Shown: positions 11,373 through 58,437 of the stretch, piece by piece | Numbering within the stretch: position 1 is the first letter of the stretch | How the letters are laid out: each line of letters opens with the position of its first letter | NCBI GenBank assembly: GCA_021796215.1 | Contig: JAJYOK010000001.1 | Span: 6,934 to 70,933 of the forward strand | Direction of reading: 5' to 3' | Origin: Bacteroidota bacterium | GTDB taxonomy: Bacteria; Bacteroidota; Ignavibacteria; UBA10030; UBA8401 | Length of the DNA stretch: 64,000 nucleotides | Notes under the pieces: generated by a model | The model's input: the letters and a program-made list of their open reading frames with translations, nothing else | Told to the model about the DNA's origin: nothing | The model's database searches: none | Translations under genes and position numbers: made by a program

Positions 11373-11395
11373 ATCCCGCCGCTTTTCGGCGGGAT
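11373..11395. terminator. GC-rich hairpin followed by heptamer repeats (terminator or REP-like)
   Basis: atcccgccg-ctttt-cggcgggat just after stop; followed by cagaagt-cagaggc-cggaagt-cagaatt rather than a U-tract. Confidence 0.45.
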
Positions 11396-11426
11396 CAGAA
11401 GTCAGAGGCCGGAAGTCAGAATTTGA

Positions 11427-13034: not shown

Positions 13035-13072
13035 TTTTTACTAGGGGCGGAGTTTTACTTTTACAACACTCA

Positions 13073-13597
13073 ATGATTAAAGCAACCCATTCACTTATTC
13101 CAACAGATCGAATTGAACAGCGCATCTATTTTCTGCGCGGCGAGAAGGTCATGCTTAGCACAGACCTTGCCAGTCTATATCAAGTGGCGCCGCGTGTGCT
13201 GGTGCAGGCGGTAAAAAGAAACACCGAACGTTTTCCAAAAGATTTCATGTTTCAACTGACAAAGGATGAGTTTCTGAACTTGAAATCACAGATTGTGACT
13301 TCAAGATGGGGCGGTTTACGCAGGGCAACACCTTATGCATTTACTGAGCAGGGTGTTGCAATGCTGTCCAGCATTCTGAGAAGTAAACGGGCTGTTCGGG
13401 TGAATATCGAGATCATGCGGGCATTTGTACGCTTGCGTAAACTGCTTGCCTCTAATGAAGAACTCGCGCACAAACTTGAGCTGCTGGAGAAGAAATACGA
13501 TGCTCAGTTTAAGGTTGTGTTTGAAGCAATTAGGGAACTTATGACTCCTCCGGAGCCGAAGCGCCGGCCTATCGGTTTTGGCAGAGAAAGCGAGTAA
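13073..13597 (+). CDS. ORF6N domain DNA-binding protein (antirepressor-associated family)
   Basis: [48 protein letters not shown], terminal RPIGF; the ORF-track N-terminal extension is translated repeat. Confidence 0.92.
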
Positions 13598-13663
13598 CAG
13601 ATATTTTGAGTGAGGGCGGTTTTCCACGACAAGGCAGCCACGCTTTTAATGTGGTTTTTTAAT

Positions 13664-13772
13664 TTGACCTTCGGGAATGTTCTATTTACTTTGGATACAG
13701 TCAATTCTATTGACGGCTGTTCGCCGCAGCGCGAGTTGATTTTTTTGAGAGGACGGCGAGACAGTCCCTTAC
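13664..13772 (+). repeat. 109-bp direct repeat copy 2
   Basis: Same length as copy 1 with 5 substitutions. Confidence 0.8.
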
Positions 13773-32668: not shown

Positions 32669-32737
32669 AACCAATTTTTGAGAGTGAGTGGGAGATGGAA
32701 AATGGAAGATGAACAATTCCATCAATCCAACAACCCA

Positions 32738-34633
32738 TCAATCCATTTCTCTTTGTAGCTCAGAGTTAGTTTTTATGTCCAAAGCAACACCGGTATATAA
32801 TTCTTTGAATATTGCCATCGCTTCACGTTCTCGTTCACCCAAATGATAATTGAAGCCTTCCAAATATTCCTGCGTCTCTTTTGCCGTCAATCCAATACGG
32901 TCACCGTGTACTTTTCCGACAGCATCCAATTCTGCTTCTGCACGTTCGAGTGAACGTGCAAGGATATGATGAAGCTCGCTCTTGCGTTCAGCACTCAATG
33001 ACTTTCTCTGTGCCCAAACAGCAAACACAAATGGAAGTTTTTGCCAATCGTACCATTCTTTAGCAAGGTCGAAGACGAGTTCAAATCCGGGCAGACCGTA
33101 TTTGTTGCGCCGCAGCGCTTCATCGCCGATAAGGAGAACGGCGTCGTATGCATCGTAATTATTCACACCGGCATGAAGACGTTTAAAAGTTGCGTGAACG
33201 TTGTATTTTTTTGCAAGCAGAACTTGAAGCAAGCGCACCGACGTTGCCGTGTCGTCCGTAATTCCAATTGTTTTGCCTTCAAGTCCCGTCCAGCCTTCTT
33301 TTGAAAAAAGCATCACGCTTTTTACCTGATCGCGCGTTGCGATACAATGATTCATCAGTTCAAGTGTATCTGTGTTGCTGAAGAAATCCATAAGCGAAAA
33401 CGGGCCTGCTTCAATCTGTTCTTTCTTTGCCAGCTCGCCCATTCTTCGCGGCACAACCGGGAAAATTTTGAATTGGTGTTTTTCAAAATGAGAATAAAAT
33501 GGAACAGAATTCAAATATGGAATTTTTCCAATGACATTGTCAGTGTAAAGATTGAGTGGATTGTAAAAGACATCGCGATCGACAGGGATTTTTCCGGCAT
33601 CGTTGATGATTTTAATGATGTGGTCTTTTGCCAATTTCATCGGACTCACTGCACCGGCATCATGAGCAATTTTTTCTCCGCCAACGGTTCCGTCCATATC
33701 ATCTGCGCCGAAATGCAGCGCGACCGACGCAACTTCTTCCGTGAGCATTACCCAGTACGCTTTGATGTGCGGAAAATTATCGAGCATCAGCCGAGAGACA
33801 GCAATGGTTTTCAAATCTTCGATGGCAGACGTGAAATCATTTTTCGGTTTGATGCCTGTATCGCCGGGCTGGAACGCAAGCGGAATGAATGTGAGGAAGC
33901 CGCCGGTTTCATCCTGCGCCTCGCGCAATTTCATCATGTGCACAACGCGTTCTTCGTATGTTTCAACGTGGCCGTACAGCAATGTCGAATTTGTCGGGAT
34001 GCCGAGACGATGCGCCGTTTTATGAACTTCAAACCATGTTTTCGCGCCAATCTTTTGATTGAAGAGCAGCTTGCGCACGCGTTCCGAAAAAACTTCTGCG
34101 CCGCCGCCGGGCATGGTGCGAAGTCCGGCATCTTTCAATTGAAGAAGAACTTCTTCGATCGGCAGCTTGAATTTTTTATGGAAGAAATCTATTTCGACAG
34201 CCGTGAACGCTTTTACGTCAACATTCGGGAAATTCTTTTTTATTTCCCGAACCATGTCAAGGTAGTATTTCCATTCCCAATCCGGGTGCAATCCGCCGGT
34301 GATATGTACTTCGTGAATTTCCGGCGTGAGTTTGCTCAGGATCTCTTCGATTGTCATTTCATACGCATCTGGTTTGCCGGTCTTTGTAGCAAAGTCGCAG
34401 AACTTACATGAAAGGACGCAGACATTTGTCGGCTCGATCTTTTGATTCAGCACAAAATAAACGGCATCGCCGCTTTTCTGCTGCTGAACTGCGTGCGCCA
34501 TCTTTCCAATCGAAATGATGTCGCCAGAATTGAACAGCGCCACGCCATCTTCAAGTGAAAGACGGGTACCGTTCTGAATTTTTTCCCAAATGGGTGTAAG
34601 ACGCTTGTCACGAAAATAAATTGTCGAACTCAT
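32738..34633 (-). CDS. mqnE: Fused aminofutalosine synthase (MqnE) - chorismate dehydratase (MqnA)
   Basis: N-half TNVCVLSCKFCDF, MPGGGAE, HIKAYW, GADDMDGT; C-half IPYLNS.PF, VKSV, TATS..LL, LLIGDEAL, DLA.EW...LPFVFAVW. Confidence 0.9.
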   Translation of the reverse strand: MSSTIYFRDKRLTPIWEKIQNGTRLSLEDGVALFNSGDIISIGKMAHAVQQQKSGDAVYFVLNQKIEPTNVCVLSCKFCDFATKTGKPDAYEMTIEEILSKLTPEIHEVHITGGLHPDWEWKYYLDMVREIKKNFPNVDVKAFTAVEIDFFHKKFKLPIEEVLLQLKDAGLRTMPGGGAEVFSERVRKLLFNQKIGAKTWFEVHKTAHRLGIPTNSTLLYGHVETYEERVVHMMKLREAQDETGGFLTFIPLAFQPGDTGIKPKNDFTSAIEDLKTIAVSRLMLDNFPHIKAYWVMLTEEVASVALHFGADDMDGTVGGEKIAHDAGAVSPMKLAKDHIIKIINDAGKIPVDRDVFYNPLNLYTDNVIGKIPYLNSVPFYSHFEKHQFKIFPVVPRRMGELAKKEQIEAGPFSLMDFFSNTDTLELMNHCIATRDQVKSVMLFSKEGWTGLEGKTIGITDDTATSVRLLQVLLAKKYNVHATFKRLHAGVNNYDAYDAVLLIGDEALRRNKYGLPGFELVFDLAKEWYDWQKLPFVFAVWAQRKSLSAERKSELHHILARSLERAEAELDAVGKVHGDRIGLTAKETQEYLEGFNYHLGEREREAMAIFKELYTGVALDIKTNSELQREMD

Positions 34634-43331: not shown

Positions 43332-45500
43332 TTATTTGAGCACCATAAGTTTTTTCGTTTCAATATATTTACCACTTTGCAAGCGATAGAAGTACACGCC
43401 GCTTGAAACATTGCCCGCATTCCACTCCACCTCGTATGTTCCGGGAGATTTGCGTTCGTTTACGAGCGTTGCAATTTCTCTTCCCAAAACGTCGAACACT
43501 TTCAACGACACGAATCCGAAATCAGCAATCGAAAATCGGAAATGTGTAGCCGGGTTGAATGGGTTGGGGAAATTTTGGGAAAGAGAAAAAACGTTTGGGA
43601 CGGGATGCGGGTTCTCTTTTACAGCAACGACTGTACCGTACGTTTTGTCATTGATGATTGCCTCGGAAAGCAGCATGTCATACGAAAGTCCCGTTGCCAT
43701 TTCTATAATACCAATGCTGTCGGCGATGGAAGAAAACGGAGCGATGGCACCAAACATTTTAAATATTGTTTTCATTTTTCCAAACACGTTATCAGTGAGG
43801 ATATCTTGAACGCGTTCATGGTCGCCAATAGTATCTCCTATGCTTTTTGAAAAATCATATAGAACATGGTCGGTGCTGTCGTTTGAAGAATAAAGATACA
43901 CTCTGAATCCATCTTTCCGCACATACGAGCTTTTGAGAATGTAACCTGCATCCGATTTTAGAAGCACATACGATTTGCCGTTTGGCATAACAGTGTCTTT
44001 TTCCGCTCTCACGTTATCGTATCCTACGAAGGAAGACAACGGGTCCGGGTTCTCAATATTTGTGACGTAGTATTGCCATAAATCACCGACATGAAGAGGA
44101 AAATCAAAATCTTCAGTTTTTCCGACATCGTCAAGAGAAAAGTTGAGAAGCACATTTGTTGAGTCTCTTTTTCCTGTGAGCCAGATGCGGTTGGTTCCAT
44201 CCACATACGAGGAAGGGAAAATTGTGTACATGGAAGAAAGAGGCGCAAGCTTAGCAGAATCAGTGGTAGAATATTTCATGAGATATGATGTGGTTGGAGT
44301 ACTGGTCAGTAAAACATGCTGGTTGCCAGCTGAGTCTACAAGGATCTGACTGAGTGTCAAATTGAAGATGCCGAGATAATGTTCCGCAAGCTTTTTAAGG
44401 GGGCTTCCTGCTTTGGAAATATGATATTGCAGAAAAGATGAATCGTTTCTCGAAACAATACTGAATATTCCCACATTCCCGTTTTTCAAAAAAATTGTTT
44501 GTGCATGTGTGTCGTTCAGTGAATCAATATACAATCCACTTCCTTTAGAATAGTGAATGATATAACTTTCTTGTGAAACGCTGCTGTAATTGTAGTGCCA
44601 CACGATATGGATTGCTCCGCTTGAATCAACGTTCCATTGAGTTGATCTCTTTAGGAGCGGGTACCACGAACCCGCGTACGGGTTTAAAATGATTATTTGT
44701 AAGTGTACAGCAGTTCCCAAATGGTTTGCGCTTCCCGCAATGTAACTCAAATACCCAATTTGCTGGTTTGAAGAATCCGCTTCAAGAAAAATTATATAGA
44801 CACTATCATTCTTTACTTTGATTTCAGGATAAAATCCTCTACCAATTTCAACCGGCGTTGAGTATTCTCCGTTTGAATTTCTTGATTGATAGTAAAGTGT
44901 TGATGAGTATTTGGAGAAATCAAAGCTGTAAATCGAATCAATCGGAGAAATTTTTTCCCACACAAAATGAAGTGTGTTGCTTTTGTCTGATGTTATTGCA
45001 GGATGAAGTCCGTTTTGTAGCGTGAGTATTTTCTGAAAGGAATCACCGTTATATTTTGCGAGCGAAAGAGTAGGCAAAGAATCGTAGTATATGTTCGGTG
45101 GGACATCGGTGTATGTTTGTCGCATATTGCTCCACAGAGCGAACAAAGAATCCGCTGATGTCATGACGAAAGAATTGTCAATGACATTTGCTCCGCCGCC
45201 AAGCCCGTAGGAGCGGCTCTCTTCAACATCCGGCAAAAGGATGATCTTTTTGGCGAGTGAAGTGGGGGACAAAATGCAATATGTCAATGAGGTTGTTCCC
45301 CAATAGTCAGATAAAGGGAAACTCCAGTCTAATGATGAAACTCCTGGAATAAAAAATCCTGCCGAGGCGGCTGCGATTGATGAAGAATTTGTTTTGTAGG
45401 GCAGTTTCGGAAAAACTTCTTCATTGATGATTTGCGCAGAAGCGGAAAAGAAAATGAGGGGAATGCCGGTAACTATCAGTATGAAACGCAACGATTTCAT
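43332..45500 (-). CDS. T9SS-secreted protein (unknown function)
   Basis: Signal peptide; FPLHVGD.WQY module; C-terminal QNFPNPFNP CTD. Confidence 0.85.
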   Translation of the reverse strand: MKSLRFILIVTGIPLIFFSASAQIINEEVFPKLPYKTNSSSIAAASAGFFIPGVSSLDWSFPLSDYWGTTSLTYCILSPTSLAKKIILLPDVEESRSYGLGGGANVIDNSFVMTSADSLFALWSNMRQTYTDVPPNIYYDSLPTLSLAKYNGDSFQKILTLQNGLHPAITSDKSNTLHFVWEKISPIDSIYSFDFSKYSSTLYYQSRNSNGEYSTPVEIGRGFYPEIKVKNDSVYIIFLEADSSNQQIGYLSYIAGSANHLGTAVHLQIIILNPYAGSWYPLLKRSTQWNVDSSGAIHIVWHYNYSSVSQESYIIHYSKGSGLYIDSLNDTHAQTIFLKNGNVGIFSIVSRNDSSFLQYHISKAGSPLKKLAEHYLGIFNLTLSQILVDSAGNQHVLLTSTPTTSYLMKYSTTDSAKLAPLSSMYTIFPSSYVDGTNRIWLTGKRDSTNVLLNFSLDDVGKTEDFDFPLHVGDLWQYYVTNIENPDPLSSFVGYDNVRAEKDTVMPNGKSYVLLKSDAGYILKSSYVRKDGFRVYLYSSNDSTDHVLYDFSKSIGDTIGDHERVQDILTDNVFGKMKTIFKMFGAIAPFSSIADSIGIIEMATGLSYDMLLSEAIINDKTYGTVVAVKENPHPVPNVFSLSQNFPNPFNPATHFRFSIADFGFVSLKVFDVLGREIATLVNERKSPGTYEVEWNAGNVSSGVYFYRLQSGKYIETKKLMVLK

Positions 45501-45984: not shown

Positions 45985-46213
45985 AGCACTTATCTCCTTT
46001 CGAACGGTAGGGTATTCACTCGGAAATGTACTTTTCATCGGTAAGAATTGCAATAGCAACTCAAGATTTATAGTGAGATATTTGAGAAACTCCCGGTTTG
46101 TCCGCTTGCGTAATCTTTTGGCGGAGAAGTTTGCAATCGCATGCTTTTCTCGCTACATTTATTCCAACCATTCACATAGGTTGCCACCGCGTACAATGGG
46201 TGAAAGACTGTTA

Positions 46214-46292
46214 TACGCAGAGGCGCTGAGACGCGAAGAATATTTTTCAGAATGAATTTGATCGGATTCTCTGCGCTTTTGCGACTCAGCGT
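46214..46292. repeat. Octamer-periodic inverted-repeat element
   Basis: cgcagagg-cgctgaga-cgcgaaga ... tctctgcg-cttttgcg-actcagcg. Confidence 0.65.
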
Positions 46293-46328
46293 TGGAAAAA
46301 ATATTTTACAAACAAACTAACTCCAAGA

Positions 46329-47837
46329 ATGAACTCTATTACCGTTGTTCTTCCGTATGCTGCACATCTGCAGTCCGAGTCCCGCGCAAACGGGCTGAAT
46401 CAATTTATCAAGTCGGAACTTGTCAGCAAAATTCTTCTTTTGCATGATGGCGATGCCGGCGTAGCATTTCCAAAATGTGTAGGAATGAAAGTCAAATCGC
46501 CGACATCAGGTGCAGCCATCAATGCATTTCTGAAAAAAATCACCACCCCGTTTTTTCTTTTCGTGCCGCAGTCTCAACAAGTAGAATTAAGCCAGCTCGC
46601 GCTTGAGCGTTTTGTTTCTGTTGCAGAACAAACAGGCGCAGGAATGATCTACGCCGATTATTATGAAGTGAAAAACGGCCAGTTGAAAACCCCTTTGAGG
46701 CGGTCCGATCATCCGGTGAACGATTATCAGTTAGGAAGCATTCGGGATAATTTTGATTTTGGAGCGATGCTGCTGTTCAATACGAACGCTGTGCGAAAAA
46801 CTTTGAAGCGTTACGGCGGCACGCAAGGCGTAGCGAAGGTTGAACGCGCCGGATTGTATGATCTCCGGCTGAAGCTTTCAATTGATTACGAACTTTTTCA
46901 CATTCAGGAATATCTTTATACTAAAGTCGAATCCGATGTCCGAAAGAGCGGCGAGAAATTATTCGATTATGTTGATCCGCGCAATCAGTTCGTTCAAAAG
47001 GAATTGGAGTCCGTTGCAACGCAGCATCTCAAAAACATCGACGCATATCTGAAGCCAAAGTTCAGCAAAGTGCCGAAATTTGACGCGCAGTTTCCGGTAG
47101 AAGCAAGCGTGATTATTCCGGTACGGAATCGTGAGCGAACGGTTGCCGACGCTGTGAAAAGTGCGCTTTCGCAAAAAACGAATTTCCCCTTCAACGTGAT
47201 TGTTGTTGACAATCATTCGACCGATGGAACGACCGCAATTCTTTCTGAACTGGCGGCAAAAAATTCCGGAGTGAAGCACATCATTCCATTACGGGACGAT
47301 CTCGGCATTGGCGGATGCTGGAACGAAGCTGTGTTCTCCGAACATTGCGGACGGTACGCCGTGCAGTTGGATTCCGACGATATGTACAACAGTGAAAATA
47401 CTCTGCAGAAGGTGGTTGATCTTTTCCACAGCGGCAAATACGCAATGATTGTCGGCTCGTATCAGTTGGTGAATTCCGAGTTGAAGGAAATTCCGCCGGG
47501 ATTGATCGATCATAAAGAATGGACGCCGGACAATGGAAGAAATAATGCGCTGCGCATTAACGGACTTGGTGCACCTCGTGCTTTTCACACGGCATTGCTT
47601 CGTCAAGTCGGCTTGCCGAATGTAAGTTACGGTGAAGATTATGCCGTCGCGCTGAGGCTTTCGCGGGAATATCAAATTGGCAGAATTTATGAAAGCCTGT
47701 ACCTTTGCCGAAGGTGGGAAGGCAACACCGATGCGGCGCTTCCGATTGATAAAATAAACCGCAACGATTGGTACAAAGATAAAATCCGAACGATTGAAAT
47801 TTTAGCAAGACAAAAGCTAAATCGAAGTAAAAGGTAA
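46329..47837 (+). CDS. Glycosyltransferase family 2 protein (two-domain)
   Basis: [31 protein letters not shown]; degenerate GT-A-like N-domain. Confidence 0.9.
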
Positions 47838-47901
47838 AATGGAAAAAGGAAGATGGATGAAACAATCTTCTTCCATTTCCCATCTCACATTTCCCCTTTT
47901 T
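47829..47901. repeat. Heptamer inverted-repeat element without passenger gene
   Basis: aaaaggt-aaaatgg-aaaaagg-aagatgg ... ttccatt-tcccatc-tcacatt-tcccctt. Confidence 0.7.
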
Positions 47902-47904
47902 CTT

Positions 47905-48429
47905 ATGGCAGACACTGTCAATATCCGGGTTTGGACACAAAATGATCTTGAAGTGATTCGAAAGATCACGTGGGAAACGTGGCTTGCAACGTACGCAGAG
48001 TTTATTCCGGAAGAAGATTTACGATCGTACTTCGACACGAACTATTCTTCCGATAAGCTGCGCAAGTTGTACCATTCCGTTTTCATGAAAGGATTTCTTG
48101 CGGAAGTAAACGGCGTTACCGCTGGCTGCATGAGAACATTCTTGAACAAAGAAGAAAATCGTTTTTATGTTTCGTCACTGTATATTCTACCGCAGTTTCA
48201 GGGAAAAGGAATCGGCAAACGGTTGATGGCTGAAGCAGAAGAGTGCGCGCGCGGTTATCACCTCGGTCAAGTGTGGCTCGGCGTGATGGAACAAAATATT
48301 CATGCGCTGGAATGGTACAAGGCGCAAGGTTTTGAATTTCCTGAGGAAGCGCCGTTCGTGATGGGGAAAACATCCGTCAATCATTTTATCGGCTTCAAAC
48401 GAATTTACCCGGACACTTTACCGCAATGA
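47905..48429 (+). CDS. GNAT family N-acetyltransferase
   Basis: ETW..TY, LYILPQFQGKGIG motif A, WLGV...N..A..WY...GF. Confidence 0.9.
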   Translation: MADTVNIRVWTQNDLEVIRKITWETWLATYAEFIPEEDLRSYFDTNYSSDKLRKLYHSVFMKGFLAEVNGVTAGCMRTFLNKEENRFYVSSLYILPQFQGKGIGKRLMAEAEECARGYHLGQVWLGVMEQNIHALEWYKAQGFEFPEEAPFVMGKTSVNHFIGFKRIYPDTLPQ

Positions 48430-48453
48430 CGCGGCGGCGCAAAGCGACTTTTT

Positions 48454-49566
48454 TTGACAACCAAAAACCAGAGCAGCGTCCTTCCCGCAAAAAAAGCGGG
48501 AAGCCGTTTTTATCTCACCAGTGAAAAGATGAATAAGTCAGTAACATTGTTGCACGATAAATTATTTTCCTCTTACAATTCTCCGAAAAGTAAATTACTT
48601 TCCGGTCAGCCCTCTGAAAATTTGGCGGAACTTTCGGTTGCACTTCTTGAACAGCAAAAAATGTCGTGGCAGCAATTGATTGACGGTTATGCCGCGTTAA
48701 GTTCTGTCCGCACGCGCGAGATTCAGTGCAATGGATTTTCTGTCCGATTGCAGTTTAATCCGCGGCGCATTGTCAGCAGCGGTGCGAAGGTGGATGTAAA
48801 ATCGATCAGCGAACGGAAATGTTTTTTGTGTGTTGAAAACCTTCCCGCAGAACAAAAGGGAGTGCTGTACCGTGAAGAGTTTCTCGTCTTATGTAATCCT
48901 GCGCCAATTTTTGCACAGCATTACACAATCTCCAATATCAAACATCTTCCGCAGGCGATAGAAAATTATAGCGCCACATTACTCTCGCTTGCGAAAGATT
49001 TCAGCGCGCGCTTCACCGTATTTTACAACGGACCGAAATGCGGTGCGTCAGCGCCGGACCACATGCACTTTCAGTCGAGTCCGAGCGGTGTTATTCCGGT
49101 AGAACGGGATGCAGAAGATGCCGCGCGGCGAATGTTGATCAAAACTGTGAACGATGTTGCCGTTCTTCGATTGAAAAATTACGGGCGTGAAGTTGTTTTG
49201 CTGGAAGGAAAAGATTCCGAATCGCTAAATGCCTTGCTTCTTAAATTCATTGACGTAATGCGGCGGAAAACTTCTCAGCCTTCGGCCGAATCTGTCGAAG
49301 AGCCGATGTTGAATATTCTTTGCTCGTATCACAGTGGAATGTGGCGGGTGATTATTTTTCCGCGCCGCAAGCATCGCCCGGATGTTTATTTTCTTGAAGG
49401 TGAAAAGAAAATATTGATCAGTCCTGCATCGGTTGATATTGGCGGCTTGGTAGTTACGCCAATTGAAAAGGACTTCCTTTCTGTGGATGCGGCGCTGATT
49501 GAAAGCATCTTCAAAGAAGTTTCTGCAGAACGGGCGATCGTTGATCGAATCGTTGAAGAGTTGTGA
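48454..49566 (+). CDS. DUF4922 protein (HxHxQ nucleoside-diphosphate-sugar/Ap4A phosphorylase-like)
   Basis: QFNPRRIVSSGA, CFLC..NLP.EQ, LCNP.PIF..H.TI, FYNGPKCGASAPDHMHFQ; start may be 48528. Confidence 0.85.
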   Translation: MTTKNQSSVLPAKKAGSRFYLTSEKMNKSVTLLHDKLFSSYNSPKSKLLSGQPSENLAELSVALLEQQKMSWQQLIDGYAALSSVRTREIQCNGFSVRLQFNPRRIVSSGAKVDVKSISERKCFLCVENLPAEQKGVLYREEFLVLCNPAPIFAQHYTISNIKHLPQAIENYSATLLSLAKDFSARFTVFYNGPKCGASAPDHMHFQSSPSGVIPVERDAEDAARRMLIKTVNDVAVLRLKNYGREVVLLEGKDSESLNALLLKFIDVMRRKTSQPSAESVEEPMLNILCSYHSGMWRVIIFPRRKHRPDVYFLEGEKKILISPASVDIGGLVVTPIEKDFLSVDAALIESIFKEVSAERAIVDRIVEEL

Positions 49567-49601
49567 AATGTTTTTTTCGGAAAGCTATCTTTTGCATTGC
49601 A

Positions 49602-49673
49602 GGATTATTGGATAAATGGACTGATGGAAAGCCCCTACTTCATTATTCCAATAATTCAAAAATCCATCAATCC
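49602..49673. repeat. Octamer-periodic inverted-repeat element
   Basis: ggattatt-ggataaat-ggactgat-ggaaagcc ... attattcc-aataattc-aaaaatcc-atcaatcc. Confidence 0.65.
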
Positions 49674-49705
49674 ACCTTCGTGGTTCTTCGAGGATAACAA
49701 AGTTT

Positions 49706-51079
49706 ATGATCACATCTGAACCTAAAATCAAAGTCGGAATTTTTGAGCACCGGGCAAAAGTGCACGGCATATTCAACGGTAAATTTCTCGTCGGAGGCGT
49801 TTCTGTTGCCGGCGAATTTCGCGCCCGAGTTGAATCCGGAATGGTTATCCTTGAGCAAGTAGTGCCGCCCTACGGTGTTGAAAACAAAACGATCGCAAAA
49901 GCGAAGGAAATTCATTGTGCTCATACAGAAGGGACCACATTCACGCTGCACGAGGTGACGATCGGAATTTCTTTTCACTGGGAACGGAACGAGAGCCAGA
50001 CATTTCAGGGCGACCTTGTTTTGATTCTGCGCGATGATGGAACGATCACAGCGATCAACGAAATTTCAGTTGAAGAATATCTTGCGAGCGTGATTTCCTC
50101 AGAGATGAGCGCGGAAGCGCCAGCGGAATTATTGAAAGCGCATGCGATCACTTCGCGAAGCTGGCTGGTGGCAATGCTGGAACGCGAAAAAAAGAAAAGC
50201 GGTTCGCGTATTCACCCGCGCGATATGGTGCGTGAAATTGAAAATCACGCCACTGTGCCTGGCGAACTTATCCGCTGGTACGACCGCGAAGACCACGATC
50301 TCTTTGATGTATGCGCCGACGATCATTGCCAGCGGTACCAAGGCATCACGAAAATTATTTCAAAAAGCGCGGGGGAAGCGATTGACGAAACGTGCGGAAT
50401 GTTCATTGTGTACGATAATGAAATTTGCGATGCACGGTTTTACAAATCGTGCGGCGGATTGTCGGAAGAATTTCAGAATGCATGGGAAGATGTTCACGTT
50501 CCGTATCTGACGTGTGTCGCCGACCTGCCTGCCGGCAGGCAAGGTTCACCTGTTCGTCATCCGCATATTCGAACAGAAAGTGACGCCGAGCGTTGGGTGC
50601 TCTCTTCTCCTGATGCATATTGCAACACCACTGACGGAAATATTCTTCGCCAAATTCTTCCTTCGTTCGATCAGGAAACGACCGATTTCTTCCGCTGGAA
50701 AGTTGAATACACGCGCGAAGAATTGAGCGAGATTGTCCTCACAAAATCGGGAATTGATTTTGGTGAAATAAAAAATCTCGTTCCCGTTCAGCGCGGGCCA
50801 TCGGGGCGGCTGATTAAACTGAAAATTGAAGGGACAAAGAAAACGCTTGTCGTCGGAAAGGAATTGGAAATTCGCCGCTGGCTTTCGAAGAGCCATCTTT
50901 ATAGTTCAGCATTTATTGTCCGTAAAGAATCTGATAAATTTATTTTGATCGGCGCCGGATGGGGACATGGCGTTGGCTTGTGCCAGATCGGCGCGGCAGT
51001 GATGGCGGCAAAAGGATTTCGAGCAGAAGAAATTGTGAAACATTATTTTCATGGAGTGGAATTGAAGAAGCTGTACTGA
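49706..51079 (+). CDS. SpoIID/LytB domain protein (lytic transglycosylase-like)
   Basis: EEYLASVISSEM, LKAHAI..RS, CADDHCQRYQG, RGPSGR, GAGWGHGVGLCQ.GA. Confidence 0.92.
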   Translation: MITSEPKIKVGIFEHRAKVHGIFNGKFLVGGVSVAGEFRARVESGMVILEQVVPPYGVENKTIAKAKEIHCAHTEGTTFTLHEVTIGISFHWERNESQTFQGDLVLILRDDGTITAINEISVEEYLASVISSEMSAEAPAELLKAHAITSRSWLVAMLEREKKKSGSRIHPRDMVREIENHATVPGELIRWYDREDHDLFDVCADDHCQRYQGITKIISKSAGEAIDETCGMFIVYDNEICDARFYKSCGGLSEEFQNAWEDVHVPYLTCVADLPAGRQGSPVRHPHIRTESDAERWVLSSPDAYCNTTDGNILRQILPSFDQETTDFFRWKVEYTREELSEIVLTKSGIDFGEIKNLVPVQRGPSGRLIKLKIEGTKKTLVVGKELEIRRWLSKSHLYSSAFIVRKESDKFILIGAGWGHGVGLCQIGAAVMAAKGFRAEEIVKHYFHGVELKKLY

Positions 51080-51080
51080 A

Positions 51081-51626
51081 AAAATGTGAAATGGAAAATG
51101 GAAGATGGAATTCTAATCCACTAGATGAAATTTTCTGAAAGGAATTCAAACAATGGATTCTAAGACGCAGGCTTTGTTGGACAGAACGTTTGAGTATGGG
51201 GTAAAAGTTTTGAAGTTTTTGGTAACGTTACCTTCCAATGATGGTTTCAGGGTTCTGAAATATCAACTTACAAAGTCATCAACATCCATTGGTGCGAACT
51301 ATGAAGAAGCACAAGCAGCAGAATCGAAAGATGATTTCATTCACAAAGTTGCAATCTCTTTAAAAGAGGCGCGGGAATCGCATTATTGGCTGAGGGTGTT
51401 GCGTGCTTTAATCTCAACTCCTTCCAAACAAAAAATTTTAGACAATTTTATTACCGAAGCGGCAGAATACAAAAGTATTTTTTCTTCAATCAGAGTTTCA
51501 GCAATGAAAAACAGGGGAATAAACAAAACGGAAAATGGAAGGCGGTAAATGGAAGATAGACAAAAGATGAGGTCTGCGAATTATCTGTCATCTGTTTTCC
51601 ATCTACCATTTTCCATCTCACATTTT
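51081..51626. mobile_element. Four-helix-bundle gene enclosed by 30-bp heptamer-built inverted repeats
   Basis: 51081-51110 and 51597-51626 are reverse complements at 28/30 positions; mobility is inferred, not shown. Confidence 0.5.
51153..51548 (+). CDS. Four helix bundle protein (23S rRNA IVS-type family)
   Basis: L..RT..Y, QL.KSSTSIGANYEEAQ.AES..DFIHK..ISLKEARES.YWL. Confidence 0.92.
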   Translation: MDSKTQALLDRTFEYGVKVLKFLVTLPSNDGFRVLKYQLTKSSTSIGANYEEAQAAESKDDFIHKVAISLKEARESHYWLRVLRALISTPSKQKILDNFITEAAEYKSIFSSIRVSAMKNRGINKTENGRR

Positions 51627-51643
51627 TTGCCAAAGGAGATTGT

Positions 51644-52930
51644 ATGAGTAATGCCAAATTGTTGTATCGAAATCCCTGGGTGTGGGTGCCATCGCTCTAT
51701 CTTGCCGAAGGATTGCCGTACGTTGTTGTGATGACCGTTTCGGTGATCATGTACAAGCGCCTCGGCATTTCGAATACCGATATTGCGCTCTATACAAGCT
51801 GGCTTTATTTGCCGTGGGTCATCAAACCGCTTTGGAGTCCCTTTGTTGATATGTTCCGGACGAAGCGGCTTTGGATCATTTCAATGCAATTTCTCGTCGG
51901 CGTTTCGCTGGCGGGAGTGGCGCTGACAATTCCGACATCGCATTTCTTTCAGTACACACTCGCTGTGTTCTGGCTGATGGCGTTCAGCTCTGCGACGCAC
52001 GATATTTCTGCCGATGGATTTTATATGCTCGGACTTCAACAGCACGAGCAGGCGGCATTCGTCGGCGTGCGCAGTACATTCTACCGCATTGCAATGATTA
52101 TGGCGCAAGGCGGATTCGTTGTGCTTGCGGGTTCTCTTGAACAAAGCACCGGCGGCAACATCAAGCTTGCGTGGCTTATCACGCTGTTTGTGCTCGCGGC
52201 GTTGATGCTCGTTTTGTTTGTCTATCACCGTTTCTTTCTGCCGTATCCCGCGTCGGATTGTCCTGCGAAAAGAGATGCAACGCAGACTGTGTTCGGCGAA
52301 TTTCTCAGTATCTTTGCAAAGTTTTTCAAAAGGAAAGGCATCGTTTCTATTCTTGCGTTCCTTCTCTTGTATCGTTTTGCCGAAGCACAGTTGGTGAAAC
52401 TTGTCACGCCGTTTTTGCTAGACCCGGTTTCGAAAGGCGGGCTTGGCTTGACGACAAGCGAAGTCGGCGTGGTGTACGGAACGGTCGGAATTATTGCGCT
52501 GACACTCGGCGGACTGTTAGGAGGATATGTGATCTCGCGGCAAGGATTGAAATTCTGGCTGTGGCCCATGGTGCTCATCATTCATTTGCCCGATCTTGTA
52601 TTCGTGTATCTTTCGCAAGTGCAGCCGCAGAATTTTCTCATCGTCAATATCGGCGTTGCGGTTGAGCAATTCGGTTACGGATTTGGATTTACTGCGTACA
52701 TGATGTACATGATTCTTATTTCAGAAGGGGAACACAAAACAGCGCACTATGCAATCTGTACCGGCATTATGGCGCTTGGGATGATGCTGCCGGGAATGTT
52801 CAGCGGATGGCTGGAAGATTTAATTGGCTATCAGCATTTCTTTTTGTGGGTGATTCTTGCGACTGTGCCGGGATTTCTTGTTGCATTGTTAGTGAAGGTT
52901 GATCCGGAGTTCGGGAGGAAGAAAGAGTAA
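51644..52930 (+). CDS. ampG: AmpG-family muropeptide MFS transporter
   Basis: LYLAEGLPY, PW..KPLWSPFVD, SATHDISADG, 12 TM helices. Confidence 0.85.
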   Translation: MSNAKLLYRNPWVWVPSLYLAEGLPYVVVMTVSVIMYKRLGISNTDIALYTSWLYLPWVIKPLWSPFVDMFRTKRLWIISMQFLVGVSLAGVALTIPTSHFFQYTLAVFWLMAFSSATHDISADGFYMLGLQQHEQAAFVGVRSTFYRIAMIMAQGGFVVLAGSLEQSTGGNIKLAWLITLFVLAALMLVLFVYHRFFLPYPASDCPAKRDATQTVFGEFLSIFAKFFKRKGIVSILAFLLLYRFAEAQLVKLVTPFLLDPVSKGGLGLTTSEVGVVYGTVGIIALTLGGLLGGYVISRQGLKFWLWPMVLIIHLPDLVFVYLSQVQPQNFLIVNIGVAVEQFGYGFGFTAYMMYMILISEGEHKTAHYAICTGIMALGMMLPGMFSGWLEDLIGYQHFFLWVILATVPGFLVALLVKVDPEFGRKKE

Positions 52931-52944
52931 AACGGTGGGCAACG

Positions 52945-53427
52945 GTGAACAAAGATGTTGTGTGCTGTTTTACCGGACAGCCTGTCCGCCGGAGCGGTAG
53001 CGTAGGCGGAGAGTTTGATTTGGAAACGAGCGTGCACAACTTCAGAGCGAGAATGTATGACGACACGTTGAATATTTTCTATGCCATGGACCCGGGAAAT
53101 CAATCATTCTCGCAGTTCGGTTACGTCGGTGGAAACCCGGTAATGCGTGTTGGTTCTACGGGGAGAGTATGGTGGTTAACGGCACTGGAGGTTATTAGAG
53201 ACATTTACACAGTGTATTCGGCAGCAAGTATGGTGTATACCACTGCTCAAGCGATACAGTCCGGAGATTTAGGAAATATAATTCAAGCGGGGATGCATGA
53301 TGTGTTTAGTCTTGCAGGGATGGGAGCTGCCGGAGCGGAACCGGAAGAATTCCATCTGAGTGACTGGATCGAGGAATTGTATTGTTTCAAGGCCAGAATA
53401 CAGAATACCTATGGGAAAAAACTATAG
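52945..53427 (+). pseudogene. Degenerate RHS core fragment with C-terminal extension
   Basis: FTGQ[10-aa insert]EFD...HNFRARMYD...DP...Y.GGNPV..V.STG (DPxG motif degraded). Confidence 0.7.
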
Positions 53428-53442
53428 AATATTGGAGGTAAT

Positions 53443-53943
53443 ATGGTGACGAAGATCAAGTTTATTTTATACGTTATCGTTTTGAGCTTTATCGGTGCCT
53501 CGTACCAGGCTCTCGGCCACAGAGACATTTCTGAGCTTGGTGAATTTGAAATCAAATTACAGGTTTCCACCAATTTAAGTGTGAAGTGTTTTATAAAGGT
53601 CATTAAATATTCTGCAGACATGTCTCACAATAGATGTTGGGGAAGTGATTGGTCCGATCCCCGCACTGTTATAGGTGAGCTAAAAATTTGGATAAATAAC
53701 AAAGAGATAATTGTTCCGCTATCTTCCTACGCTGATCTTTCAAACATAAATTGGGCGAGCCTAAAGGATGTGCACGAAGGCTACCGCCTTCATATTAAGG
53801 GAGGCGATGCGGCTTCAAGTTATGATGCAACAATAGATTTTGATGAGATAGGACTGTTTGGTCGTGAAGTGCACAATGGAGAAGAACCGAAGGTTGACTG
53901 GGAGAAAACGATCTATTCTAGAGACACAACTTCAATCTATTGA
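53443..53943 (+). CDS. Hypothetical secreted protein, putative immunity protein
   Basis: RBS ggagg; signal peptide; directly follows the RHS fragment; AT-rich. Confidence 0.6.
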   Translation: MVTKIKFILYVIVLSFIGASYQALGHRDISELGEFEIKLQVSTNLSVKCFIKVIKYSADMSHNRCWGSDWSDPRTVIGELKIWINNKEIIVPLSSYADLSNINWASLKDVHEGYRLHIKGGDAASSYDATIDFDEIGLFGREVHNGEEPKVDWEKTIYSRDTTSIY

Positions 53944-53970
53944 AAAGAAAATCTGAGGAAGTATGACCAT

Positions 53971-54963
53971 ATGGAAGCATTCACTGGTCAGGAATTGGAT
54001 GGAGAGCTTGGGCTTTATAACTTTAGAGCCAGAGATTACGATCCGGCGCTCAAAATCTTCTACGCTTCCGACCCGGCTAGTGAAGACTTTTCGCCGTATA
54101 TGTATGTCGGCGGAAATCCGGTTATGCTCATTGACCCAACCGGAATGGACGATGCTCTTCCTGACTGGCCCGGCATTACATTACCCGGAGTAACCGTGTA
54201 TGCCGATCCCACAACCCAAACTCCACCAAGCTTTTTGGATTTAGCAAATCAAATTGGTGTAAGTGACTGGCAATACTTAATGCAGAATTCAAGCGCGTTT
54301 AGGGCGTGGGTATCCCGAGGAAACACAGATATACCTAAACAACCTATTATATTTATGTCAAGAGATTTCGCACAACCACATTCATTCCCATATTTTGATC
54401 CGAGACTCTTGGATGATGTGAGCGCGGTGAATCCGATGGGATTGCCGATTTATGGATTACCTACTATTCCCACAATAGTTGCTTCCGTTCACATAGATCC
54501 GCAAGTGTGGGTGCTGGGGTCCGGTCCGAATAAAAACTTAGGATTAGATGCGGGTGAAACAACTTTATCTATTATTTCTGCTTCTGTGTATAACGAAGCA
54601 GTAACGTTAGGCAAGAACCTAAGATATTATAAAACAGGCCCCATAGGGAACGCTGTGAGAATGAGTGAAACTGCTGCACAGGAATTAGTGAAACCAATAG
54701 GAAAAGTGATTCATGGCGCTAATGTCATTCAAGGTGTGGCAACTATTATGGATGATAAATTGACGTGGGGTTTAAAGGGACTAAAATTGAGCAGTTTATA
54801 TGTCAGCAGTGCCTTGGCAACGCCGCTTGTTGGCATAGGAATTTCTGTAGCTACTGATTATGCCATTAGCTCTGAATTAAGCGCAAGACAGTATAGCCGC
54901 ACACATTTTGTGGTTGGGAGTGGTAGTACAAGTGTTTCTATTCCTAAGCCGGGAGAAAGATAA
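53971..54963 (+). CDS. Orphan RHS core plus C-terminal toxin-like tip
   Basis: FTGQELD.ELGLYNFRARDYDP...DPASE.FSPYMYVGGNPVMLIDPTG followed by about 270 aa of unrelated sequence. Confidence 0.82.
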   Translation: MEAFTGQELDGELGLYNFRARDYDPALKIFYASDPASEDFSPYMYVGGNPVMLIDPTGMDDALPDWPGITLPGVTVYADPTTQTPPSFLDLANQIGVSDWQYLMQNSSAFRAWVSRGNTDIPKQPIIFMSRDFAQPHSFPYFDPRLLDDVSAVNPMGLPIYGLPTIPTIVASVHIDPQVWVLGSGPNKNLGLDAGETTLSIISASVYNEAVTLGKNLRYYKTGPIGNAVRMSETAAQELVKPIGKVIHGANVIQGVATIMDDKLTWGLKGLKLSSLYVSSALATPLVGIGISVATDYAISSELSARQYSRTHFVVGSGSTSVSIPKPGER

Positions 54964-54964
54964 A

Positions 54965-55363
54965 ATGAAAATTTGGAAATATTTGTATTGCTTAAATTAT
55001 AAAATTGGGATCAAATTTAACAAAACAGACCCTGAATTCGCCTCGACTATCGGTATGACTCTTATTTTCACTTTCAACGTATTAACAATTAAAAATATTT
55101 TTGCAATGATAATCGGTAGGACTCTTTTTTTCGAAGATAAGAAAATAGACGGGTTGCTTATTTTAGCGGCATCATTTATTCTACAATACTTTATTTTTTT
55201 ACGAGACAAAAAATACAAAAAAATATTAACGGAGTTTGAAGCTAGATCGAAAAAAGGCTCAATATTAGATTATGTTTTTCTAATCTTAGTAGTAATTGCA
55301 ACATTTTCTTTGTGGATTTATACAGATTCTATTCTTACTGAAATGCTTGCTATGCCAAAATGA
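54965..55363 (+). CDS. Small 3-TM membrane protein, putative cognate immunity protein
   Basis: Starts 1 nt after the toxin stop; very AT-rich; three hydrophobic helices. Confidence 0.65.
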   Translation: MKIWKYLYCLNYKIGIKFNKTDPEFASTIGMTLIFTFNVLTIKNIFAMIIGRTLFFEDKKIDGLLILAASFILQYFIFLRDKKYKKILTEFEARSKKGSILDYVFLILVVIATFSLWIYTDSILTEMLAMPK

Positions 55364-55368
55364 TCTAA

Positions 55369-55710
55369 TTGTTTTTCCCAGCGCAAACTGTTACCGATAA
55401 GTATTACATATATGGACTGACGGGACTTATTGCTGTTGTTGATGGAGGAAACACGTTCTTTACCGTGAAAGACTATCTTGGCTCGACAAGGGTTATATTG
55501 ACAAGCTCGAATGTTCCCGTAACGTGGTACGACTACACACCGTACGGCGTCCGGTGGCGCACAACGGTGAACAAAGATCTTGTGTACCGTTTTACGGGAC
55601 AGGAGTTTGATACCAAGATAGGTTTGCATAACTTTAGGGCAAGAATGTATGACAGCAACGTAGGAAAGTTTTCATTTCGTTCCCAATGTCCCGTTGGAAA
55701 CGAAATATGA
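55369..55710 (+). pseudogene. Truncated RHS core fragment
   Basis: KDYLGSTRV, YDYTPYG, YRFTGQEFD, HNFRARMYD; ends at a REP palindrome before DPxG. Confidence 0.78.
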
Positions 55711-55819
55711 GTGGAGCTCTGCTTCCTTAGCATAAAGATTCTGTTCTGCATGACTCGCAGCATAGATATGAACCAGAGCTTCACAGATTGAGGTTCCCAA
55801 ACTCTGTTAGGGAACAAGA
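55677..55819. repeat. REP doublet (REPIN-like, GTTCCCA...GGGAAC family)
   Basis: cgttcccaa..ttggaaacg; inner gtggagctctgcttc / gaaccagagcttcac; gttcccaa..agggaac. Confidence 0.7.
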
Positions 55820-55911
55820 TGAACAATTATTGAAACCGAGGTGTTACCGGCATTGTAGTTGCATTTCATTGTTGTTATATTTCTGCCGGATGTTGAAAGG
55901 AGGTTGCAGCC

Positions 55912-56328
55912 ATGAAAACGTTTCTTCTTGTTTCTTCCGCTTTCCTGATTTCATTTCTTCTCAGTTGCTCTCAAAGCACCTCGCCAAACGGCGGTGTGCC
56001 TCAGATTTATGGTACGTGGCAATGGTATAGAACAACGGGCGGGTTCGGCGGTACTAATACAACACCCGAGTCCTGCGGATGCACGGCAAAAGCAGTTTTC
56101 AAGCCGGAAGGTGTTGCTCAGTTCTTCCAGAACGATACGCTTGCAAACCAATATCCATTCACGATCATAAGGGATACAACGTATGGGCGGGAAAATTATC
56201 TGCTCCATGTGGAGAGCGGCACGCACTACCCGGATCAGCTCATCAATATTTCATCACAAGGCGACACTTTAGTGTTGGCCGATTATTGCACGGACTGTTT
56301 TACACATTTTTATGTGAGAATTCAGTGA
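55912..56328 (+). CDS. Hypothetical lipoprotein (lipocalin-like)
   Basis: Lipobox LLSC; GTWQW..TTGGFGG; DYCTDCF. Confidence 0.75.
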   Translation: MKTFLLVSSAFLISFLLSCSQSTSPNGGVPQIYGTWQWYRTTGGFGGTNTTPESCGCTAKAVFKPEGVAQFFQNDTLANQYPFTIIRDTTYGRENYLLHVESGTHYPDQLINISSQGDTLVLADYCTDCFTHFYVRIQ

Positions 56329-56359
56329 AGAGGGACATACATAATTAAAGTAATCTGAG

Positions 56360-56737
56360 ATGACAACAATGAAATCTATCCAAGACATCAAAAGAGAATA
56401 CAAAGAACGGAAAAAGCCCGCAGGTGTTTTTATGGTGAAGAATGCCGCCAACGGAAAAGTTCTTCTCGGAAGCAGTTTGAATCTTGAAGGTCCGCTGAAT
56501 GGTCACAAGTTTATGCTGACAACCGGCAGTCACCGCAACGAAGCGCTTCAGAAGGATTGGAATACTTATGGCGCTGATAAATTTGCCTTCGAGATTTTGG
56601 AAGTTGTGAAAGTGAAAGACGATCCGGATTTTAATCTCGAAGATGAGCTGACATTGCTCGAACAAATCTGGATTGAGAAGCTTCAGCCGTTTGGAGAAGG
56701 CGGATACAACACCGAGCCGAATATTAGGCAGGCGTGA
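56360..56737 (+). CDS. GIY-YIG nuclease family protein
   Basis: GVF.VKN..NGK..LGSS.NL, H.N..LQ.DW..YG...F.FEILE. Confidence 0.82.
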   Translation: MTTMKSIQDIKREYKERKKPAGVFMVKNAANGKVLLGSSLNLEGPLNGHKFMLTTGSHRNEALQKDWNTYGADKFAFEILEVVKVKDDPDFNLEDELTLLEQIWIEKLQPFGEGGYNTEPNIRQA

Positions 56738-56742
56738 AAGAG

Positions 56743-56886
56743 CAAATTCTAAATGCGAATTTATAAACTCTAAACAAATTCTAATGAACAAAAATTTAAA
56801 CTCTTCGCGCGTTACAAGGACTTGTTGTTTTCGAAATTTGAATTTTGATATTGTTTAGGATTTCGAATTTAGTGCTGCGGATTTTA
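56743..56886. repeat. AT-rich heptamer-periodic inverted-repeat element
   Basis: aaattctaaatgcgaatttataaactctaaacaaattc ... gaattttgatattgtttaggatttcgaatttagtgctgcggatttt. Confidence 0.65.
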
Positions 56887-56919
56887 TTGACTAAAAAGTT
56901 TATCAGCAGAACCAATCAC

Positions 56920-57270
56920 ATGTACGAATCACGTCACCAAAAGCCGATAACTCCCCGCCATTTCCGGCGGCGTGTGTTGAATCATTTTCTCATCGCTTCC
57001 GCATTAATTATCGGCTCGCTGCTGTTGGGGATGTGCGGCTATCATTTTTTTGAAAATCTTTCGTGGACGGATTCGTTTCTCAACGCATCAATGCTGTTAG
57101 GCGGAATGGGTCCGGTCGAATCGCCGCAGACAGAGTGGGGAAAATTATTTGCCGGTTTTTATGCGCTGTATGCCGGATTGGTGTTTCTTATTGCTGTAGG
57201 AATTATCGCGGCTCCCGTTTTCCACCGGATGCTGCATTTGTTCCACTGGAGCGACAAAGAGAATCTTTAA
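56920..57270 (+). CDS. Small two-TM protein (ion-channel-like fold)
   Basis: GM.GYH.FE..SW.DSFLNASMLLGGMG...T..GKLFAG.YAL. Confidence 0.78.
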   Translation: MYESRHQKPITPRHFRRRVLNHFLIASALIIGSLLLGMCGYHFFENLSWTDSFLNASMLLGGMGPVESPQTEWGKLFAGFYALYAGLVFLIAVGIIAAPVFHRMLHLFHWSDKENL

Positions 57271-57426
57271 ATCGCTGAGCCGTTAGGATGAATCTTCTGC
57301 TCAACTTCTTAAATACTCAACGACGTATCTTCCCACTGTTTTCTTGCTTCTCTTCGCATTACTTCGTACTTTGAGTCGTCATTTAAGGATTTCTTCAGTC
57401 AAAAGGGCTCCTTTGGAAAATTTTTC

Positions 57427-58437
57427 ATGGCTCAACGACCCCAATTGAAAATCCCTTCGGGATTTGTTATCGGTATTGACGGCGGCGGCACCAAAACAGC
57501 CGCAATTATAGCAAATCTTCACGGCGACATTCTCGCGGAACACACGGCAGGACCTTCAAATTTCCAGATCATCGGTGTGGAAGAAACAGCACGAGTCCTT
57601 TTTTCATTGATCCATTCGTGTTGTGATTCTGTCGGCTGTGCAGTTGGCGATATTTCTGCAATGACCATTGGCTTGACCGGAGCAGGCCGTCCGGTTGACC
57701 AACAACGAATGAAAGACGGTTTTCTGCAATATGCGGCGCAAAAAAAGAATCGCCTGCGCGGTGTAAAGATTGAAAGCGATGCGCGCATTGCTTTGGAAGG
57801 CGCGTTCAAAGGCGGCGCAGGAATTATTCTGATTGCCGGAACCGGCTCCATTGCCTTCGGAAAAGATGCGAAAGGAAATGTACATCGCGTCGGCGGATGG
57901 GGAAGAATTTTGGGAGATGAGGGAAGCGGATATTTTATCGGCAAAGCCGGGATGAGTGCGGTGACGCGGCACCTTGACAGCCGCACGCCTGCAACAAAAC
58001 TTTCTGCACTTGTGGCGAAAAAATTCGGATTCAAAAATCAAACCGATATTATCGCGGCAGTGTATAAGAATAATTTCGATCTTGCTTCAGTTGCGCCGCT
58101 GGTGCTGAACGCCGCCGAGAGAGGCGACCGTATTTGTCAGGCGATTGTAAATATTGCTGTTATAGAATTGGAAACGCATGTGTGCGCGCTGCTGACAAAG
58201 CTGCACACAAATTCCCGCCGTACCGTCAGGCAAAAATTGCCATTGACGTTTATCGGCGGATTGATTGCTAATGAAACGCTGCTGGCGAAGCTTTTGCGCA
58301 AACGTCTTGCCGAAGCGCTGCCGGAAATTCAAATCATCAAGCCAATGGCGCCGCCGGTATATGGCGCGGTGATTATGTCGCTCAGCAATTACCCACCACG
58401 AAGTCACAAAGACACAAAGATAATTGGAGTACAATGA
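57427..58437 (+). CDS. BadF/BadG/BcrA/BcrD family ATPase (N-acetylglucosamine/MurNAc kinase-like)
   Basis: IGIDGGGTKT, SDA..AL, LIAGTGS, RVGGWG..LGDEGSG. Confidence 0.9.
   Translation: MAQRPQLKIPSGFVIGIDGGGTKTAAIIANLHGDILAEHTAGPSNFQIIGVEETARVLFSLIHSCCDSVGCAVGDISAMTIGLTGAGRPVDQQRMKDGFLQYAAQKKNRLRGVKIESDARIALEGAFKGGAGIILIAGTGSIAFGKDAKGNVHRVGGWGRILGDEGSGYFIGKAGMSAVTRHLDSRTPATKLSALVAKKFGFKNQTDIIAAVYKNNFDLASVAPLVLNAAERGDRICQAIVNIAVIELETHVCALLTKLHTNSRRTVRQKLPLTFIGGLIANETLLAKLLRKRLAEALPEIQIIKPMAPPVYGAVIMSLSNYPPRSHKDTKIIGVQ

Follow-up and report, generated by a model that had tools for sequence, protein, structure and literature searches.

A four-helix-bundle gene within heptamer-built inverted repeats between spoIID and ampG: a mobile-looking cassette resembling rRNA intervening sequences

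Background

Genes of the PF05635/TIGR02436 family are widespread, and to our knowledge they have no known function outside diversity-generating retroelements (DGRs). The closest described systems are the ORF-bearing intervening sequences (IVSs) of 23S rRNA in Coxiella and Leptospira (the latter as cited in PMC4990558), whose ORFs belong to the S23p/PF05635 family and lie on the transcribed strand. The IVS passages of PMC4990558 describe a 428-nt element in Coxiella with a 28-bp stem, tandem GACAGAT heptamers that vary in number at the 5' end, RNase III cleavage, and an ORF that is decaying and probably untranslated. Avd, the DGR accessory protein, forms a pentameric barrel with likeness to S23 proteins and has an RNA stem-loop as its ligand (searched passages of bioRxiv 2023.10.23.563531), and PF05635 resembles Avd according to the searched passages of PMC10053308.

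Two further kinds of element invite comparison. REPtrons and TIRtrons, in the searched passages of PMC3733652, consist of a single small gene flanked by inverted repeats, further copies of which stand elsewhere in the genome without a gene. Paired or tandem 7-8-mer arrays, unexplained or held to be regulatory, are described in the searched passages of three papers: paired heptamer/octamer arrays of Geobacter, termed 'global regulator binding sites' (PMC2700814), inverted GGGAATC pairs of Xanthomonas (PMC4692102) and TAACTGA arrays of Beggiatoaceae (PMC4679880). Such arrays are placed between genes, many of them in convergent pairs or immediately upstream of a start codon, and in the passages searched, including 12 of the 19 supplements of PMC2700814, no link to four-helix-bundle genes is made. 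The genes themselves are merely listed as strain-specific in the searched part of PMC8700078. Heptamer arms are already known from the Coxiella IVS; no paper on four-helix-bundle genes enclosed by inverted heptamer repeats at mRNA junctions was found in a literature search that covered a minority of the subscription journals.

Results

The cassette between spoIID and ampG

The locus lies in the window, as we call the whole analysed stretch of 64,000 nucleotides; its genome is referred to below as G000, and G001 and G002 are its congeners. A cassette of ~550 bp occupies the junction of spoIID and an ampG-like gene (Table 1), its sole ORF is the TIGR02436 gene, and no transposase or inserting enzyme is encoded. 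The initial annotation had described arms at 51081-51110 and 51597-51626 that are complementary at 28 of 30 positions and built from (A/G)AAATGG-like heptamers. Comparison with the reverse complement confirmed the pairing, and the arms lengthen to 32 nt (51079-51110/51597-51628) with 30/32 positions (94%) complementary, the two mismatches being A·C and A·A. Both are made up of NNNATGG-type units with a period of 7, and their period-7 score is the top one in a scan of the window. The flanking inverted-repeat score of 56 is the second highest for the 2818 ORFs called in this genome (mean 17.9, sd 3.6, 99th percentile 30).

Table 1 Features of the spoIID-ampG cassette and of the gene-less hairpins and arrays in the window
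Feature	Position	Strand	Remarks
Left (5') arm	51079..51110	+	Tandem NNNATGG heptamers; first base is also the final base of the spoIID stop codon
Right (3') arm	51581..51628, core 51597-51628	+	Inverted heptamers; 3 nt separate its end from the ampG ribosome-binding site
AAAGGAG ribosome-binding site of ampG	51632-51638
Four-helix-bundle gene	51153..51548	+	131 aa, TIGR02436 / PF05635, four helices, S23p/Avd fold
Inner forward heptamer run	51525..51563	+	Overlaps the stop of the four-helix-bundle gene; alternative right-arm partner
Upstream host gene, SpoIID/LytB-domain protein	49706..51079	+
Downstream host gene, AmpG-like MFS transporter	51644..52930	+	Score under the curated AmpG cut-off
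Gene-less ATGG-type hairpin	47829..47901	+	GT2 glycosyltransferase / GNAT junction
Hybrid gene-less hairpin, ATGG heptamer arm and CCATCAAT-type octamer arm	32689..32753	.	Minus-strand operon junction
Lone GAAGTCA-type heptamer run	11395..11425	+	Adjoins a G+C-rich hairpin
Degenerate gene-less AAATTCT-type arms	56744..56872	+	3' of a GIY-YIG gene
Gene-less octamer-type hairpin	49602..49674	+	DUF4922 / spoIID junction

A long-range stem between the arms is found in the MFE and centroid structures alike, and the arm duplex is slightly stabler in antisense than in sense (-43.2 vs -39.4 kcal/mol). The third forward run that had been noticed over the stop codon is real, extends over 51525-51563, folds with the right arm (z -2.94) and is conserved in both congeners. 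This inner run and the outer arm compete for the right arm, with about 12 and 25 expected base pairs, respectively. An Rfam scan of positions 46000-57500 returned no match, and a promoter and terminator scan gave four promoter-like sites, against 2.3 expected, and no terminators; a role of the right arm as a canonical intrinsic terminator was rejected. Purine richness of the 5' arm, found in 53 of 54, was likewise discarded as an indicator of strand, since both strands of an inverted repeat read alike. By eye, no duplication of the target site was apparent; the empty alleles have diverged too far for junctions to be read at base level.

The family assignment of the protein, first made from the letters alone, agrees with profile scores of 71.7 bits for TIGR02436 (cut-off 24) and 52 bits for PF05635 (cut-off 33.8). 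Structure prediction gave four helices with a pLDDT of 93.5, and the closest fold in the structure search was B. thetaiotaomicron BT_0352 (2RLD, five chains, E 1.9e-5), followed by Xcc0516 (2GSC, five chains, E 4e-3). The likeness to Avd named in the initial annotation is present at the level of fold (4DWL at E 0.12, TM 0.58-0.67), with 16% identity between the two proteins and a fold closer to 2RLD than to Avd; the RNA stem-loop binding of Avd offers a precedent for repeat binding (searched passages of bioRxiv 2023.10.23.563531). A homopentameric ring is predicted by analogy with the five-chain 2RLD and 2GSC and with the searched passages of PMC4990558. The protein is maintained under purifying selection, because dN/dS is 0.19 in the comparison with G002 and 0.09-0.10 for two homologues from Chitinophagaceae (L061/L062). 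Its dS to G002 (0.37) equals that of spoIID (0.38), and therefore the cassette has been inherited vertically at spoIID-ampG since the split from G002, with no recent move.

Comparison with the described systems

The proposed likeness to IVSs is closer than the initial annotation knew, since the stem of the Coxiella IVS itself has tandem heptamers (searched passages of PMC4990558, as for the other Coxiella features here). In both systems, terminal inverted repeats form a long stem (about 28-32 bp) around an ORF of the same family on the transcribed strand, and tandem heptamers of variable number lie at the 5' end; the sizes are also similar (428 nt vs ~550). Unlike an rRNA IVS, the cassette stands between protein-coding genes, is present at many sites per genome, with many types of arm and gene-less forms, and carries an ORF under purifying selection rather than a decaying one. 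Membership in the 23S rRNA IVSs was rejected: the cassette is not in rRNA, and the 23S gene of this genome (on C37, 3032 nt) is of ordinary length, with no room for an IVS.

The cassette shares with REPtrons and TIRtrons its single small gene between inverted repeats and the gene-less copies elsewhere, and with insertion sequences its terminal inverted repeats and its filled and empty sites. Unlike REPtrons and TIRtrons, it has no tyrosine transposase, and its arms are tandem heptamer arrays, not GTAG/CGTC-tagged palindromes (searched passages of PMC3733652). Tandem 7-8-mers at gene junctions are also seen in the Geobacter, Xanthomonas and Beggiatoaceae arrays; unlike in those, gene-bearing, deleted and gene-less states are seen here at orthologous junctions.

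Other cassettes and gene-less hairpins in the genome

G000 holds eight TIGR02436 matches, and the expectation that the paralogs have inverted repeats of their own was borne out by eye for seven of them, with 7- or 8-mer arms of a different sequence in each; the weakest match (C11) has no arms by eye. Automated scoring placed four of the seven labelled paralogs at 28 or above, and two had mis-called ORF ends. Five intact GxxExxY genes with octamer-type arms (scores 26-42) show the same build as the four-helix-bundle cassettes. An RNase III gene is present in the genome.

A further gene of the same build, with catalytic cargo, is enclosed by AACCTTA-type heptamer inverted arms at G000:C14:226686-227162 (minus strand); judging from a motif, we take it to be an IS200/Y1-like transposase and a candidate helper in trans. 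REP-like inverted repeats flank genes at G000:C11:10381-10668, C14:160080-160412, C30:25309-25950 and C14:259624-260253, presumably GIY-YIG-like and RAYT-like genes, again by their motifs.

Gene-less relatives of the arms had been pointed out at four places in the window. The one at 47829-47901 is confirmed as an ATGG hairpin without a gene (z -2.84, 0/200 shuffles); a gene-bearing version of it was not found in 20 relative loci. What had been read as half an element at about 32691-32711 is in fact a complete hybrid, in which 32689-32716 pairs with an octamer-type arm reaching to about 32753 (z -2.41). At 11396, the GAAGTCA-type heptamers are present as a lone run (z -1.46), half an element at most. 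At 56743, degenerate AAATTCT-type arms exist, and their fold is at chance level (z -0.07, with the last ~12 nt of the right arm outside the folded window); G002 has a different hairpin, of octamer type, at this junction. A gene-bearing form at the 32689 or 56743 junctions was sought in relatives and not found. An octamer hairpin at 49602-49674 (z -1.88) is to be added to this list; it is present in G002 and absent in G001, where the stop overlaps the start.

A genome search with the 21-mer ATGG core gave 26 matches vs 2-3 in shuffles, most of them near gene boundaries and roughly a quarter deep inside genes. It replaced a looser census (NNNA[TC]G[GT]x3), which was not above shuffles (26 vs 18-34).

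Homologous loci: arms, placement and clades

Is the enclosure by inverted heptamer arms a property of this genome or of the family? Among 512 confirmed loci, the best 80 were taken and 79 scored (L139 was dropped for its short flank). Inverted arms scored above the best of 50 shuffles at 54 of the 79 loci, as compared with 17 in direct orientation; the other 25 loci had no significant inverted arms. In a wider sample of 51 diverse TIGR02436 loci (L217 dropped, short flank), significant inverted arms were found at 38, of which 31 are of period 7 and belong to many sequence types. The family is present in 95 of the 121 genomes of the class sample, with up to 20 matches each.

The gene is co-oriented with both neighbours at 71 of the 79 loci. 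There are 34 neighbour pairs, the query included (an overcount where neighbours were mis-called), with no common function by inspection. The distance from the upstream stop to the arm has a median of -3 nt, that is, 3 nt inside the stop codon (42/53 within 25), and that from the arm to the downstream ATG a median of +6 nt (38/49 within 25). At L061, L079, L080, L113 and window positions 31883-32725, the 3' arm extends into, or lies in frame with, the beginning of the next gene, and therefore arm sequence can become N-terminal coding sequence. In the L064 homologue, each flank is a complete local hairpin, so that the arms have their own as well as a long-range partner.

Arm classes, set after viewing the data, comprised 40 ATGG, 17 AAG and 22 unclassified loci. 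All 17 AAG-arm rows fall within one starred clade of 25, in which there is no ATGG row, and the arm-class label changes 14 times on the tree vs 38 times when shuffled. Alignment A1 comprised 22 of the 80 homologues and the query. The query clusters with three ATGG rows that come from a single other junction in Chitinophagaceae/Bacteroidota; its nearest kin (65-73% aa identity, Chitinophagaceae/Bacteroidota) have the same ATGG heptamer at another junction. The gene and its arm type move as a pair. Common descent alone could explain the match between arm type and protein clade, which by itself does not demonstrate co-evolution. The ATGG core is kept at at least 14 site groups, where the proteins are only ~50% identical, and arms match their own partner better than that of another site (41.5 vs 32.7; 32/40).

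The same junctions across relatives

Another important question is whether the cassette is a fixed part of its junctions. Of the 40 genomes with a spoIID match, the best 30 were compared, giving 29 relatives, 27 of which have ampG next. The gene is not fixed at spoIID-ampG, where the initial annotation had anticipated empty sites: one of the 27 relatives, G002, has an intact cassette, with a longer left arm, and 15 have a bare junction with a spacer of 8-55 bp. In G001, an internal deletion of ~370 bp with a GAAT microhomology at its joint has fused the left arm with the 3' end of the gene, so that a gene-less hairpin remains. L023 has a GxxExxY cassette at this place (1/27), and in L005, ended by a contig end, a GxxExxY gene also begins at the junction. 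The remaining relatives have other gene-less hairpins (5/27, z -1.8 to -6.0), heptamer arms by eye with weak folding (2/27) or unstructured spacers (2/27).

In the reverse comparison, 29 cassette loci of G001 and G002 were mapped on G000 (L060 was dropped as the same locus as L059). Opposite the congener cassettes, G000 has bare junctions (L043, L048, L053, L059), left-over arms (L040/L051, L041, L050, L052), different cargo (L054) or different arms (L032) at the same junction, or a shared cassette (L036, L039, L044, L046, L057). These left-over arms and the G001 deletion indicate that gene-less forms are partly scars. The idea of one element with gene-bearing and empty forms holds insofar as both states are seen at junctions, but the empty ones are, at least in part, deletion scars and not a separate form. 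Some gene-less forms may arrive on their own. The L239 junction carries a GxxExxY cassette in G000 and G001 but a gene-less ATGG hairpin in G002.

Arms of more than one type are often stacked at a junction, and the number of heptamer units varies between congeners, with 7-nt indels. At G000:C8:80827-81168, compared with L032 and L039, octamer-armed four-helix-bundle cassettes in G000 and G001 stand opposite heptamer arms in G002, one type of cassette having replaced another. The alleles of an occupied junction can also be swapped through homologous exchange between the conserved genes on either side. The X1 DNA contigs, which may be the source of the window, include a G002-like strain with a longer left arm; in the X1 and X2 DNA contigs, which drop rare variants, neither a joint skipping the cassette nor an excised allele was found.

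Mismatch bias in the arms

Do the arms pair as RNA or as DNA? In arm alignments that scored identity only, G·U mismatches on the sense strand outnumber A·C mismatches by 79:48 in the homologue set and by 56:37 in the wider sample (pooled 135:85, p 0.0009, with related loci among those counted). Per locus, the excess is weak, at 26:14 (p 0.08) and 17:8 (p 0.11), or 43:22 pooled (p 0.013). Substitution rates at four-fold sites, a control drawn from one genus only, predict a ratio of about 1.0. Because the G·U excess exceeds this expectation, it favours pairing on the transcribed strand, as far as sequence comparison can tell. The mismatches of the spoIID-ampG element itself, A·C and A·A, and its slightly stabler antisense duplex speak against such pairing, and G·T pairs also stabilise single-stranded DNA hairpins.

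Discussion

That the feature is real, a mobile-looking cassette, is well supported. The reading that we prefer, with a probability of roughly 0.55, is that of an IVS-like cassette of mRNA junctions, which is likely to be looped out or to be cleaved by RNase III and whose ring protein probably binds its own repeats. Such a cassette comes and goes at the stop-to-start junctions of co-oriented genes; its arms would pair in the transcript, and looping out or RNase III cleavage would cost the operon little. No religation would be needed, because the cassette separates two independently translated genes. The Avd-like ring likely recognises its own heptamer type, and copies decay by deletion into gene-less hairpins. 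Insertion by host recombination or by a nuclease acting in trans is a guess.

A bolder form of the idea, which we put forward as possible but speculative, would make these cassettes an undescribed, transposase-free mobile class: clade-specific Avd-like rings would read their own heptamer code in RNA, the element would home to stop-start junctions and hide as an mRNA loop, decayed or mobilised arms would be the source of the unexplained intergenic arrays of many bacteria, and 23S rRNA IVSs and the DGR Avd would be offshoots. Linking the family to the arrays leads to a testable idea, namely that each protein clade binds its own heptamer type, and also offers an origin for ORF-bearing rRNA IVSs and for gene-less arrays. 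If the binding code is real, the family would be a natural one of sequence-specific RNA-binding rings. The spoIID-ampG junction is a good test case, with intact, deleted, swapped and empty alleles at one place.

The protein could instead be a domesticated regulator, a repeat-reading RNA-binding ring whose own arms autoregulate it and whose gene-less hairpins form a regulon tuning downstream translation or stability. Purifying selection on the protein, the excess of ATGG-core matches and their position near gene boundaries, the right arms that abut ribosome-binding sites, and the regulator sites proposed for such arrays in Geobacter and Beggiatoaceae (searched passages of PMC2700814 and PMC4679880) are all in keeping with this. 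We nevertheless consider it rather doubtful: sites and arm types turn over between congeners, the neighbours of the homologues have no common function by inspection, and G001, which lost the gene at spoIID-ampG, has 48 ATGG pattern matches vs 13 in G002, which kept it.

Unlikely, in our estimate, is a passenger at the DNA level, in which an HUH (Y1) transposase or another nuclease in trans would read the REP/TIR-like arms as hairpins of single-stranded DNA, with the gene as cargo and the gene-less hairpins MITE-like. TIRtrons provide the model (searched passages of PMC3733652); the GxxExxY cassettes are built alike, and the exchange at L239 between a GxxExxY cassette and a gene-less ATGG hairpin fits as well. 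Other genes with high flanking inverted-repeat scores presumably encode, to judge from motifs, Y1 transposases and GIY-YIG nucleases, one of them with the AACCTTA arms. However, the near-strict co-orientation, the stop-to-start placement and the excess of G·U on the sense strand link the element with transcription, and pure cargo would not need an arm type that follows the four-helix-bundle clade.

A neutral by-product, that is, a horizontally acquired small gene with functionless flanks grown by replication slippage and quasi-palindrome correction, would account for the varying unit number between congeners and for arms most like their own partner. It is largely refuted and very improbable: only 25 of the 2806 ORFs outside the two cassette families score at least 30, and the same heptamer core recurs at many sites, in several phyla, next to ~50%-identical proteins, where neutral DNA would presumably not have kept it across at least 14 sites. 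The remnant or orphan accessory gene of a DGR, suggested by the Avd-like fold and by the frequency of PF05635 beside DGRs (searched passages of PMC10053308), is refuted for the spoIID-ampG locus, and DGR membership was rejected: the cassette has no reverse transcriptase, RVT_1 (PF00078) has no match in G000 (100% complete by estimate), no template/variable repeat pair lies by the gene among the 20 largest repeat families, and the protein is closer to 2RLD than to Avd.

Other features of the window

The gene string GT2-GNAT-DUF4922-spoIID-ampG (window 46329-52930) is conserved across the family; DUF4922 may, to judge from this gene order, belong to peptidoglycan recycling. Downstream, positions 52945-55710 hold a cluster of putative RHS-repeat-core fragments that differ in their C-termini and have a small unrelated ORF behind each of them; they look like orphan polymorphic toxin-immunity modules. 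The long repeats at 12604-12791, 37985-38216, 41833-42064 and 43332-43578 are C-terminal domains common to secreted proteins, presumably type IX secretion sorting domains. A 118-nt direct repeat (93%; 12917-13034 and 13655-13772) lies around a 237-aa ORF (12884-13597), whose product we assume to resemble ORF6N/KilA-N DNA-binding proteins.
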